The position numbers and the translations under genes are program-made. From a virus (Duplodnaviria; Heunggongvirae; Uroviricota; Caudoviricetes), in IMG/VR virus record IMGVR_UViG_3300031088_000735: DNA of 64,000 nucleotides. One strand, written 5' to 3'. Below the pieces are notes generated by a model that was given only the letters and a program-made list of their open reading frames with translations, was not told the origin of the DNA and ran no database searches. Positions 23,557 through 28,170 of this stretch are shown piece after piece. Position 1 is the stretch's first letter, and each line of letters opens with the position of its first letter.

Positions 23557-23608
23557 AAGTTGTTGACACGTTAGCCGAAACCTTGATATAATTTAGCTAC
23601 ACACAAAC

Positions 23609-23693
23609 GCCCATGTGGTGAAATTGGTAGACGCGGCGGATTCAAAATCCGCTTCCGAAAGGAGTATCGGTTCGAGTCCGATCTTGGGCACCA
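23609..23693 (+). tRNA. trnL: tRNA-Leu(CAA)
   Basis: cloverleaf, anticodon loop TTCAAAA, long variable arm, GGTTCGAGTCC, encoded CCA. Confidence 0.95.
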
Positions 23694-23707
23694 AATTTAA
23701 GATTTAT

Positions 23708-23875
23708 GGCTGTTGTCAAACTGGATCGGTTTAAGGTGTCGAATGTGCAGACATTAAGAATCGTGGATGTGGAGGCAGAGCGAAGATGAAAACAGTAATT
23801 CAGACGAGATTGCACATACTCTGAGGCTTACTCAATAGTCCTAGCTTGGTGGTTCGATCCCATTAACAGCTACCA
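23708..23875 (+). ncRNA. tRNA-like RNA with ~130-nt internal domain
   Basis: acceptor GGCTGTT/AACAGCT + A + CCA, T arm GGTGG-TTCGATC-CCATT, D-loop-like AAACTGG; followed by terminator. Confidence 0.65.
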
Positions 23876-23976
23876 AACACAAACCACCTTTACGGGTGGT
23901 TTTTTTATTTTTAGGCTTTTATAATTCCTTTTATTTTGATATACTCTGGTTGTTGATTCTTTATTTGAGGTTTTTA

Positions 23977-24233: not shown

Positions 24234-24842
24234 ATGCAGCTCATCGAACACTTCTCTACCAGCTATGGCCCTCGCACTAAGCACCACGCTCAGACTGCAG
24301 ATCTTACGGTGGCTTTTGCCGAAGACTTCAACTCAGCCGGTGAACGTCTAACCAAACGCGAAGCAGGCAAACGCTATGTTGCCATTCATTTGAGCACTGA
24401 CCCGCTTGTGGCTGCTCGTATGCTCTATGCTGCTTGCAAAAAACACAACGTGTCAACATTGAACGTCGCAGGTAATGGTATCTACTCGCTTTCTGGTGCG
24501 TGGTCGAATGGTCAATTGAATGCACAGCACAAATTTCAATCGTTGGATGATGAGAAATTGGTTAACGAGCTGCAGGCTTCTTTGAACCAGTGGATTTATC
24601 TTGTCATTTCCAAAGTCCATGAATTCTGGCCTCTTACCCATCTTATTTCAGGTGGTCAAACAGGTGTGGATTGGGCCGGTGGTATCGCTGGTGAGCTTCT
24701 GGGCTTAGATGTGAAGATGACATTCCCTAAGCACTATATGCAGCGTGACGAGCACCATAATGACTTTACTCAAAGCCATGAAGCAGTTCAGCAAAAAGTC
24801 AGTGCTTACTTGAACTACGTTGATACCACTCAAAAAATCTAG
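24234..24842 (+). CDS. SLOG-superfamily (YpsA/MoCo-carrier-like) nucleotide-processing protein
   Basis: LNVAGNG and ISGGQTGVD motifs, RT..A..AD.T motif. Confidence 0.65.
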   Translation: MQLIEHFSTSYGPRTKHHAQTADLTVAFAEDFNSAGERLTKREAGKRYVAIHLSTDPLVAARMLYAACKKHNVSTLNVAGNGIYSLSGAWSNGQLNAQHKFQSLDDEKLVNELQASLNQWIYLVISKVHEFWPLTHLISGGQTGVDWAGGIAGELLGLDVKMTFPKHYMQRDEHHNDFTQSHEAVQQKVSAYLNYVDTTQKI

Positions 24843-26645: not shown

Positions 26646-26677
26646 GTGCCAGAGGTGAGCCAATAATGCAGCACTAA
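26646..26677 (+). other. minigene 1 (SD + ATG CAG CAC TAA, MQH)
   Basis: GTGCCA-GAGGTGA-7 nt-ATG at 26666. Confidence 0.7.
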
Positions 26678-26746
26678 GACTTAATTAATTCTATAATTGA
26701 ATCTAGTATAATGAATCCGAAATGACTTTAATTCTAATTAGATGAA

Positions 26747-26778
26747 GTGCCAGAGGTGAGCTACCCATGCCGCATTAA
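26747..26778 (+). other. minigene 2 (SD + ATG CCG CAT TAA, MPH)
   Basis: GTGCCA-GAGGTGA-7 nt-ATG at 26767. Confidence 0.7.
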
Positions 26779-26823
26779 ATTTAAATCAAATCTAGATATT
26801 AATCAATTGACAAAAATGTTGTA

Positions 26824-26850
26824 AAAACCCCATTAATGTGGGGTTTTTTG
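26824..26850 (+). terminator. intrinsic terminator closing tRNA-Leu/minigene unit 1
   Basis: AAAAACCCCATTAATGTGGGGTTTTTT. Confidence 0.85.
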
Positions 26851-26912
26851 TTGCACAGAATTTATTATTTATGTATAATGTATTTTTATTACTTTCATTA
26901 CAAGGAAATTGT

Positions 26913-27119
26913 ATGCACGAAGAAATAATTAAAACATTTTATCGTAAACGTCCTGATGGTAGCATAGGTTTTGCAGAAATCAGCAGCTACAATTATCCAG
27001 ATCGAGATCGCTTTGATCAGGCGTGCTATTTCTTCCAAGCAGAAGGCTATTTTGATACGCTCGAAGAAGCCAAAGATGCGGACTATGTTCCACCGCTAGC
27101 CTACGAAAGAACGGAATAA
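26913..27119 (+). CDS. hypothetical protein
   Basis: AAGGA SD before ATG 26913. Confidence 0.7.
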   Translation: MHEEIIKTFYRKRPDGSIGFAEISSYNYPDRDRFDQACYFFQAEGYFDTLEEAKDADYVPPLAYERTE

Positions 27120-27221
27120 TCTTTTAAATTTTAAACAAAACCGTCTTTATGGCGGTTTTTTGTTGTCATACTTTTTGTTTTTTGCTATAATCATTTCATT
27201 AAAGACATTTATAGGTTCAAC

Positions 27222-27698
27222 ATGATTTCTATCGAAACCTACTCGAAACCAGCCGAAAATCCAGAAATCGTAAAACTGGTCTATTACTCCATGCGTAATA
27301 AATACACGGCAGACTCCGATCCAGCCGGTTTGACGTTTAAAGAAGTCCGTTCTATCTTGAAAGGGCTTTCTGTTATGGCTATCAAGCATGAAGGCCGCAT
27401 TGTGGGCATTGTCCGCATGTCTGATGTGGGGTTCCCAATGAATATGCGTTTGGGTCTTAACAATGCCTTTTCCTATGAAAACCTTGGCATGATTTACATT
27501 GCCAAAAAAGAACGTGGTAATGGCTTTGCCAGTGCAGCAGTTGAATACTTGCTCACTCAGCATAAAAATCTCATTTATGTGGTTCATCAAAGTAATGTCG
27601 CCAGCAATAAATTGGCAGAAAAATACTTCACTTTTTTCAAAAGGCAATCGTCTTTTCGCTCGTTTGAAGCCTACAATATTTACAAAATCGAGCAATAA
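27222..27698 (+). CDS. GNAT-family acetyltransferase
   Basis: LGMIYIAKKERGNGFASAAV; N.AS..LAEK. Confidence 0.8.
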   Translation: MISIETYSKPAENPEIVKLVYYSMRNKYTADSDPAGLTFKEVRSILKGLSVMAIKHEGRIVGIVRMSDVGFPMNMRLGLNNAFSYENLGMIYIAKKERGNGFASAAVEYLLTQHKNLIYVVHQSNVASNKLAEKYFTFFKRQSSFRSFEAYNIYKIEQ

Positions 27699-27768
27699 GT
27701 TGTTGACGTAAAAAGACTTTCTTGTTATACTTCTCCCATCAAAACGAAACAACAAAAGGATACAAAAC

Positions 27769-27897
27769 ATGCAAGGCTCTTACCGCGACACGATGGAAAA
27801 GTTCCCTAGCAAATCTAAGGACACTGTAAAACGTGGCGAAAACAAAGCTTCCCGCAACATGCGTGACCAACGTCGCAATCGTCACTCGGACGAATAA
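27769..27897 (+). CDS. small basic MQGS-family peptide, copy 3 (42 aa, not in ORF track)
   Basis: MQGSYRDTMEKFPSKSKDTVKRGENKASRNMRDQRRNRHSDE; AAGGA SD; 9 nt before tRNA-Leu. Confidence 0.85.
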   Translation: MQGSYRDTMEKFPSKSKDTVKRGENKASRNMRDQRRNRHSDE

Positions 27898-27906
27898 GTC
27901 AACTAC

Positions 27907-27991
27907 GCCCGGTTGGTGAAATTGGTAGACGCGGGGGACTTAAAATCCCCTTCCTTACGGAGTGCCGGTTCGAGTCCGGCACCGGGCACCA
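27907..27991 (+). tRNA. trnL: tRNA-Leu(TAA) copy 2
   Basis: cloverleaf; matches copy 1 apart from compensatory acceptor-stem changes. Confidence 0.95.
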
Positions 27992-28031
27992 AATTAAACA
28001 AATAACATTAACGACTTGCTAATTAATGAGT

Positions 28032-28063
28032 GTGCCAGAGGTGAGCCAATAATGCAGCACTAA
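28032..28063 (+). other. minigene 3 (SD + ATG CAG CAC TAA, MQH)
   Basis: same sequence as minigene 1; ATG at 28052. Confidence 0.7.
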
Positions 28064-28138
28064 GACTTAATTAATCCTATAATTGAATCTAGTATATAGT
28101 TTATGAATACCGATTAATGTGAAATACTCTTATAATAA

Positions 28139-28170
28139 GTGCCCGAGGTGAACTACCGATGCAGCTATAA
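28139..28170 (+). other. minigene 4 (SD + ATG CAG CTA TAA, MQL)
   Basis: GTGCCC-GAGGTGA-7 nt-ATG at 28159. Confidence 0.7.

Follow-up and report, generated by a model that had tools for sequence, protein, structure and literature searches.

A 168-nucleotide (nt) element in the DNA of a Caudoviricetes virus (IMG/VR record IMGVR_UViG_3300031088_000735) begins and ends like a transfer RNA (tRNA) and encloses a long interior of another kind, which raises the question of what sort of RNA it specifies. The whole stretch of DNA that was analyzed, hereafter the window, is 64,000 nt long. A sequence-only reading had placed the element 14 nt after a tRNA-Leu(CAA) gene and just before a terminator, had recognized its acceptor stem, T-arm and CCA, and had proposed a tRNA mimic, a miniature transfer-messenger RNA (tmRNA) or a tRNA with an unrecognized insertion; each of these landmarks lies where it had been drawn (Table 1). 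We consider it probable that the element specifies a stable, tRNA-shaped RNA that does not decode, belongs to a huge uncultured phage and is matured in the manner of a tRNA; we infer a function for it below.

A tRNA-like frame around a covarying interior

Homologs of the element were located by way of the 59-amino-acid (aa) gene just upstream of its transcription unit, which has relatives in uncultured huge-phage contigs and whose family comprises at least 30 protein clusters. Copies lie 3' of homologs of this gene in L129, L133/L134, L121/L122/L126, L131 and L002/L137/L139, and a pattern scan of metagenomes, in which 3 of 21 loci were real, added L184 and L176. The window and these seven further distinct, full-length homologs, all from related uncultured huge-phage contigs of one sub-clade, make up the eight distinct sequences on which the comparisons below are based. 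Over the RNA the homologs are 81-85% identical to the window, and they have the same 5' end, the same ACCA end and the same kind of terminator. At the nucleotide level, the RNA (82-85%) is better conserved than the two flanking protein genes are in most comparisons (73-78%; full range 73-84%). The gene 5' of the element is always a tRNA-Leu, with anticodon CAA in six cases and UAG in L002 and L176.

The ends of the element follow the tRNA pattern closely. The acceptor stem opens with a G1-U72 wobble, continues with six Watson-Crick pairs and leads into A73 and an encoded CCA (23872-23875), while the T-arm stem includes two G-U pairs and the equivalents of G53-C61, U54, U55, C56 and A58 are present. 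The element also holds a conserved AAACUGGA motif and a Leu-type D-loop-like motif, AAA-YU-GG, which resembles the D-loop of the adjoining tRNA-Leu. Compared with a canonical tRNA, the acceptor of 7 base pairs (bp), the T-arm of 5 bp and 7 nt, the discriminator base and the CCA are all found, but instead of a closed D-arm of 3-4 bp with a loop of 8-11 nt there is a 62-nt arm (arm I). An elbow is possible because the invariant GG of AAACUGGAU, an invariant internal-loop motif of arm I, sits like G18-G19. All 18 columns of the acceptor stem and ACCA end are invariant, though one third of all alignment columns vary, a hint at sequence-specific recognition of the acceptor end beyond the mere upkeep of pairing.

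Sequence-specific reading of the acceptor would also suit a rival explanation, in which the RNA is an acceptor-end mimic that is either aminoacylated or offered as bait to host toxins or enzymes acting on the 3' CCA end of tRNAs, so that the real tRNAs are spared. Leucyl-tRNA synthetase would be the obvious candidate, because A73 and an elbow suffice for it and the anticodon is not needed; the E. coli enzyme ignores the anticodon. Invariance of the acceptor stem, G1-U72, A73 and CCA while the other helices covary speaks for such a mimic, as do the D-loop-like motif shared with the neighboring tRNA-Leu and the constant position of the element beside tRNA-Leu genes. Yet the RNA lacks a U8/N9 linker, and arm I enters at the point of D-loop closure, which leaves the geometry of the elbow uncertain; moreover, among ten neighboring proteins searched against Pfam, no acceptor-directed defense gene or phage synthetase adjoins the element. 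Taken together as substrate or bait, with charging a putative step of the former, this explanation seems to us unlikely.

The interior fold was derived with RNAalifold and manual inspection of the eight sequences, and is given here in element numbering, in which position 1 is base 23708 of the window. The alignment supports a predicted four-way junction of the acceptor, arm I at the D-arm position, arm II at the anticodon position and the T-arm, in which the tips of the two interior arms would be paired with each other. A single junction base (70) separates arms I and II. Arm I carries a second invariant internal-loop motif, GUGGA(G/U)..GUGGA, and its hairpin 28-33/43-48 has a 9-nt loop. In this fold 94% of the alignment cells are paired, a share that falls to 34-45% if the partners are slid. 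Both sides change in five pairs, and the covariation score was reached by none of 500 shuffles. At pair 33/43 five sequences have C-G and three have U-A, at pair 89/123 five have U-A and three have C-G, pair 74/137 switches from C-G to U-A, and pairs 88/124, 10/67 and 23/53 show three pair types each. Three changes in L176 (G75U, C134U and G131A) mend two mismatches and one wobble and thereby give 71-80/131-140 a full set of ten perfect pairs. L002 and L176 retain helix 88-94/118-124 only in part, and several of the unique changes among the eight sequences belong to the window.

Table 1. Coordinates of the transcription unit, the parts of the RNA and comparable RNAs in distant relatives (five-digit positions, window; paired ranges of one to three digits, element numbering; positions with an L prefix, contigs of relatives)
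Feature	Position	Strand	Basis or remark
Sigma70-type promoter (TTGACA, 18 nt, TG-TATAAT)	23563..23592	+	12/12 matches, extended -10
tRNA-Leu(CAA), first gene of the unit	23609..23693	+	ARAGORN; Rfam RF00005, 52 bits
A/U-rich 14-nt spacer, U at -1	23694..23707	+	comparison of flanks of homologs
168-nt tRNA-shaped RNA	23708..23875	+	sequence, homologs, covariation
Acceptor stem, 5' strand	23708..23714	+	pairs with 23865-23871; 7/7 paired, invariant in 8 sequences
Acceptor helix	1-7/158-164
Arm I, D-arm position	23715..23776	+	helices 8-10/67-69, 13-14/62-63, 20-24/52-56, hairpin 28-33/43-48
Apical loop of arm I	23743..23748	+	6-bp loop-loop "kiss" with 23812-23817 (36-41/105-110)
GGAGG (23771-75), 10 nt, AUG (23786-88)	23771..23788	+	sequence, fold model
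Arm II, anticodon-arm position	23778..23847	+	helices 71-80/131-140, 88-94/118-124, 99-101/112-114; apical loop holds 23812-23817
T-arm, 5-bp stem and 7-nt loop UUCGAUC	23848..23864	+	sequence; alignment helix 10
T-arm helix	141-145/153-157		abuts arm II and acceptor without linkers
Acceptor 3' strand, discriminator A73, encoded CCA	23865..23875	+	invariant in 8 sequences
Intrinsic terminator of the unit (9-bp stem, U-run)	23881..23902	+	kept in all homologs
tRNA-shaped RNA, 122 nt	L142:5253-5374		own TTGACA/TAGAAT promoter; syntenic spot 3' of 59-aa gene homolog
tRNA-shaped RNA, 122 nt	L001:2254-2375		6 nt after tRNA-Leu(UAA); six of seven acceptor pairs
tRNA-shaped RNA, 117 nt	L142:9176-9292

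The proposal of a tRNA mimic is supported by both parts of this picture, the (near-)invariant acceptor stem, T-arm, A73 and CCA and the covarying interior. An 8-bp helix that had been drawn within the interior (23743-50/23810-17) stood in part. All eight sequences retain its inner 6 bp (23743-48/23812-17), in which a single compensatory change occurs (37/109, U-A in the window, C-G in its seven relatives), and since these six pairs join the apical loops, the helix is a loop-loop contact; its outer part did not hold, G23750 pairing with C23740 in the local hairpin (U-A in three sequences). A D-stem AAAC/GUUU together with a helix 21-25/51-55 was considered for the window, and relatives keep neither. 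CsrA-type GGA motifs were rejected on the change of GGAUGU to GUAUGU in three homologs, and T-box-like UGGN motifs on the ground that UGGA would mismatch an A73 tRNA.

Comparison with tRNA and tmRNA

One could suppose that the element is an ordinary tRNA interrupted by an intron or insertion, or else a decaying tRNA pseudogene. ARAGORN in intron mode (80% threshold) does call a tRNA-Leu(GAG) with an 81-nt intron in the window. However, across the eight sequences the same mode returns Leu, Gln, His, Asp or Cys and varies in the intron it proposes, and these five identities and their shifting intron positions bear out the earlier remark that no normal anticodon arm is evident. The putative anticodon stem and D-stem are not conserved (the window's AAAC/GTTT D-stem is lost in relatives), and only the acceptor stem and T-arm are constant. 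In addition, an insert of 81 nt would not accommodate a group I intron, the only self-splicing type of tRNA intron known from bacteria and phages. With regard to decay, the interior is conserved and covaries, which is the opposite of what a pseudogene would show. We regard an interrupted or decaying tRNA as highly improbable, and the unrecognized insertion that had been suggested did not survive comparison with the homologs. Without an anticodon arm, the RNA cannot read codons.

Searches of Rfam at E values up to 10 gave nothing tRNA- or tmRNA-like over the element and no RF00005 match, and Rfam and ARAGORN together reported no RNA family of any sort over it, only ordinary tRNAs. A miniature tmRNA-like rescue RNA, in which a 12-codon open reading frame (ORF) of the element would be the tag template, nevertheless has to be weighed. 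As in tmRNA (SsrA, RF00023), a tRNA-like domain with acceptor, T-arm, D-loop analog and ACCA end closes a larger RNA that holds a short ORF, and acceptor bases 1-5 and a CUGGAU motif may resemble E. coli tmRNA, a likeness that serves as a lead only. The alanine identity pair of tmRNA is G3-U70, and its tag frame is entered without a Shine-Dalgarno (SD) sequence or AUG. In contrast, pair 3:70 of the element is C-G in all eight sequences, the sole wobble being at 1:72, and its ORF is opened by an SD and AUG and is two codons long in seven of the eight. At 168 nt the RNA is about half the size of a minimal tmRNA, and it lacks the serial pseudoknots PK1-PK4. ARAGORN in tmRNA mode (70% threshold) called none of the eight sequences, and the Rfam tmRNA model, run on a 290-kb relative (G001), missed the homolog there and gave sub-threshold tRNA-like matches elsewhere. 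Judged from the alignment, the non-conserved ORF has in practice already refuted the tmRNA reading, to which we give hardly any credence.

The short reading frame

In the window, the AUG that follows GGAGG opens an ORF of 12 codons (23786-23824) that translates to MKTVIQTRLHIL. This frame is present as the sequence-only reading had reported it; what did not hold is its conservation, since in the seven relatives the AUG is followed by one codon and a stop (AAA-UAG, AAA-UAA or GAA-UAG). A minigene frame, that is, an SD, an AUG, one to a few codons and a stop, is kept in seven of the eight sequences and lost in the window, and its columns are also constrained by pairing. In the fold model the 3' part of GGAGG (67-69) and the first two bases of the AUG (A79-U80) are paired.

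These observations bear on a second rival explanation, that the RNA is a minigene carrier or ribosome-loading switch. The conserved GGAGG-AUG-codon-stop would be translated, and the fold would hide or expose the ribosome-binding site, possibly by way of an alternative helix (69-73/112-116), such that ribosomes are loaded or peptidyl-tRNA (fMet-Lys-tRNA) drops off. GGAGG and AUG are recognizable in all eight sequences and the stop follows after one codon in seven; the main fold pairs the very bases that the switch would have to release, with the alternative helix freeing the AUG; and A70G in L002 and L184 creates a GGAG 5 nt before the AUG. SD-minigene modules, moreover, lie 3' of both other tRNA-Leu genes of the window. 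On the other hand, loss of the early stop in the window shows that conservation of the two-codon frame is not strict, helices 78-80/131-133 and 88/124 also constrain the columns of the AUG and stop, and GGAGG becomes GGAAG in L002. The alternative helix was reached by 60 of 500 shuffles and is not significant, and the motif is unlike the GAGGUGA-type modules at 26646-28170. We view a minigene switch as doubtful.

The frame recalls lambda bar-type and other two- to few-codon minigenes in its order of SD, AUG, one sense codon and stop in seven of the eight sequences and in the similar modules at other tRNA-Leu genes; unlike them, it is embedded and partly paired within a tRNA-shaped fold, its stop is lost in the window, and its translation is putative. 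The modules at the two tRNA-Leu(UAA) genes (window 26646-26790 and 28030-28170) consist of GAGGTGA, about 8 nt, ATG, two codons and TAA, and an SD-AUG-short-frame motif precedes the terminator in all three tRNA-Leu units of the window.

A more elaborate version of the switch can be imagined, although we think it quite improbable. A two-state translational device would alternate between a closed, cloverleaf-like form, with SD and AUG paired and the tips locked, and an open pseudoknot exposing the two-codon minigene, in which 69-73 would pair with 112-116 beside the 36-41/105-110 helix. Together with the minigene modules and the phage's own Pth2-like gene, such a device would serve, during takeover, to load or trap ribosomes and tRNA-Lys of the host, and its CCA end might couple the switch to the tRNA-handling machinery.

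Transcription unit, proposed mode of action and other tRNA-shaped RNAs

We return to a non-decoding, tRNA-shaped stable RNA as the favored explanation. Promoter, tRNA-Leu, spacer, element and terminator follow one another in this order with nothing else bracketed, and the arrangement is the same in all homologs; we infer that the tRNA-Leu and the RNA are co-transcribed from one promoter to one terminator. The spacer is near-identical across all homologs regardless of the type of the preceding tRNA-Leu, and may be an RNase E or RNase P leader. The promoter would yield a transcript of ~300 nt with tRNA-Leu(CAA), spacer, RNA and terminator, for the host tRNA-maturation machinery to process. RNase E would cut the A/U spacer and the trailer, RNase P would cut at G1 with the U at -1 and the acceptor/T-arm stack as its recognition unit, and exonucleases would trim to the encoded CCA, releasing a 168-nt CCA-ended RNA. 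These steps follow the established maturation of tRNA operons.

In the mature RNA, the acceptor stacked on the T-arm and the Leu-type D-loop-like motif would mimic the top half and elbow of a tRNA, and the two long arms would leave the four-way junction with their tips paired by 6 bp. Such an RNA most likely acts by being bound, whether as a decoy or otherwise. Its tRNA-like frame would allow it to be processed, keep it stable and admit it to tRNA-handling proteins; the working part would be the conserved two-arm interior, with its purine-rich invariant internal loops and locked tips.

Several points weigh against this explanation. Eight sequences from one sub-clade make for thin covariation statistics, which phylogeny can inflate, and the minimum-free-energy z-scores of all eight lie within ~1 standard deviation of shuffles, so that energy alone is uninformative. 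A perfect four-way junction almost devoid of linkers might stack in a manner unlike that of a tRNA, tip-to-tip contact between the arms would require sharp bends, and the competing helix 69-73/112-116 shows A-U, G-C and G-U at 70/115. Finally, the four compared sequencing runs of possible RNA origin consist of contigs, most of them of uncertain RNA status. Among them, a 156-nt contig from a wastewater "metagenomic RNA-Seq" run covers the boundary between tRNA-Leu and RNA (23640-23794) and, as it says nothing on transcription or ends, counts neither for nor against. The DNA is also present in runs of isolate size, so that a phage or host in culture may exist.

Judged by the compared loci, the RNA is accessory, a cassette that moves together with a tRNA-Leu gene. 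In L205, a syntenic close relative, an 80-aa hydrophobic ORF replaces the tRNA-Leu(CAA)-RNA cassette with the terminator kept (L205:3195-3610), and in a complete 153-kb relative R1, a model of the 168-nt RNA, finds no copy, which together point to an accessory element. The site appears to exchange cassettes. A paralog search of the 290-kb relative found a single copy only, and a 20-kb stretch examined for a second tRNA-shaped RNA bore no similarity to R1. Among 50,697 deposited phages, none is closely related to the window, and a blastn search of INPHARED phages with the RNA matched only the tRNA-Leu portion. E. coli genomes and plasmids gave no match to the RNA. Exact-pattern scans of viral contigs, with patterns that were window-specific or too short, returned nothing or chance matches, R1 rejecting all loci, and two pattern scans of genome contigs likewise gave none or chance matches only.

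That phage tRNA clusters encode tRNA-like stable RNAs, such as RNAC and RNAD of T4 and RNA1 and RNA2 of T5, has been recognized for some fifty years, and none of these RNAs has a known function. The 168-nt RNA is a new, uncatalogued family of this known kind of phage RNA, a kind whose function is unsolved. It shares with T4 RNAC and T5 RNA1 and RNA2 a place among phage tRNA genes, a T-arm and a closing acceptor-like stem around a long non-tRNA interior. In the T4 record, rnaC (species 1 RNA, 139 nt) and rnaD (species 2 RNA) stand at the end of the tRNA cluster, and the roles of both are stated to be unknown (PMC3014915, PMC9697503). Like the 168-nt RNA, rnaC is a tRNA-cluster gene placed after tRNAs and is of about the same size, has a canonical T-arm (CCGGG-UUCGAAU-CCCGG) that runs directly into an acceptor-like 3' strand, and is predicted to fold with a closing stem and two interior arms. 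Its closing stem, however, has U-U mismatches and no CCA is encoded, whereas the 168-nt RNA has a perfect 7-bp stem, A73, CCA, longer arms, loop-loop pairing and an SD-AUG motif. T5 RNA1 (144 nt) and RNA2 (125 nt), annotated "tRNA-like stable RNA with unknown functions", likewise lie among tRNA genes, in a phage that is lytic and has strong sigma70 promoters, and they show a tRNA-like T-arm, a closing stem and a long interior, with a Leu-type D-arm motif in RNA1; they differ in interior sequence and lack the perfect acceptor stem and CCA. Model R1 matched none of T4 rnaC and rnaD and T5 RNA1 and RNA2, so the likeness is one of kind and not shown descent, and Rfam has no family for T4 rnaC. YrlA-type Y RNAs, the tRNA mimics of bacteria and phages, are also non-coding, carry a tRNA-like module and occur in phages, but the ends of the 168-nt RNA form a true acceptor stem with CCA and not a Ro-binding stem, and Rfam gave no Y RNA match in the element.

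With its filters off, R1 also picked up further long tRNA-shaped RNAs in more distant relatives, by way of the acceptor and T-arm only. Three of these (117-122 nt; Table 1) each have a good acceptor stem and T-arm, and two of them end in CCA. ARAGORN calls none of the three a tRNA, and they are not detectably homologous to the 168-nt RNA; two lie behind a tRNA-Leu or a homolog of the 59-aa gene. That tRNA-shaped RNAs of no detectable homology to it occur in related phages, some at the same kind of site, suggests a general strategy of building non-decoding RNAs on a tRNA frame. If so, the strategy would bear on tRNA-directed defense and counter-defense and on the control of translation during takeover, and its products would be natural counterparts of the tRNA scaffold used for RNA expression. 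The 168-nt RNA is a clean example of the kind, with its perfect acceptor stem, encoded CCA, invariant G1-U72 and an interior that can be read by covariation and includes a loop-loop lock; its fold is unusually well defined for this kind of RNA, it is tied to tRNA-Leu while being present or absent between close relatives, and its link with tRNA-Leu and minigenes is suggestive. It also exposes a problem of annotation, as no current tRNA, tmRNA or Rfam tool reports it.

Around the unit, Pfam searches of the ten neighboring proteins identified a circularly permuted YpsA/SLOG protein, a GNAT protein and a cell-wall hydrolase, none of which accounts for the 168-nt RNA. The first is encoded by a 202-aa gene (window 24234-24839, + strand; PF12694, 32.7 bits, above cut-off) that lies 3' of the RNA in most relatives and whose product matches this family of nucleotide-binding fold; a search with this protein returned only the same IMG/VR contig. 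The two tRNA-Leu(UAA) units flank the GNAT acetyltransferase gene (window 27222-27695, + strand; PF00583, E 3e-7), and phage T5 likewise has an acetyltransferase-related gene beside a tRNA. Members of the L002/L184 lineage have, ahead of tRNA-Leu(CAA), a conserved, G+C-rich leader of ~70 nt that contains a hairpin (L002:3320-3396), and the window is without it.

The contigs that carry this region are very long: 1,539,155 bp, 1,851,360 bp and 677,834 bp for the relatives L137, L131 and L184, and 1,859,102 bp for the window's 59-aa protein. IMG/VR excises a 290,157-bp "provirus" (CheckV 96%) from the 1.54-Mb contig, which may be either a ~290-kb prophage in a bacterial chromosome or an assembly join. 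Two further tRNA-like sequences were seen in relatives. In the 153-kb relative a run of tRNAs ends (L001:3410-3560) with an odd ARAGORN tRNA-Pro(AGG), which is followed by ~80 nt of structured sequence and a terminator like that of the window, and in the 290-kb relative a 77-nt tRNA-like match to R1 (L206:9761-9837, - strand; 23 bits) is not called by ARAGORN.

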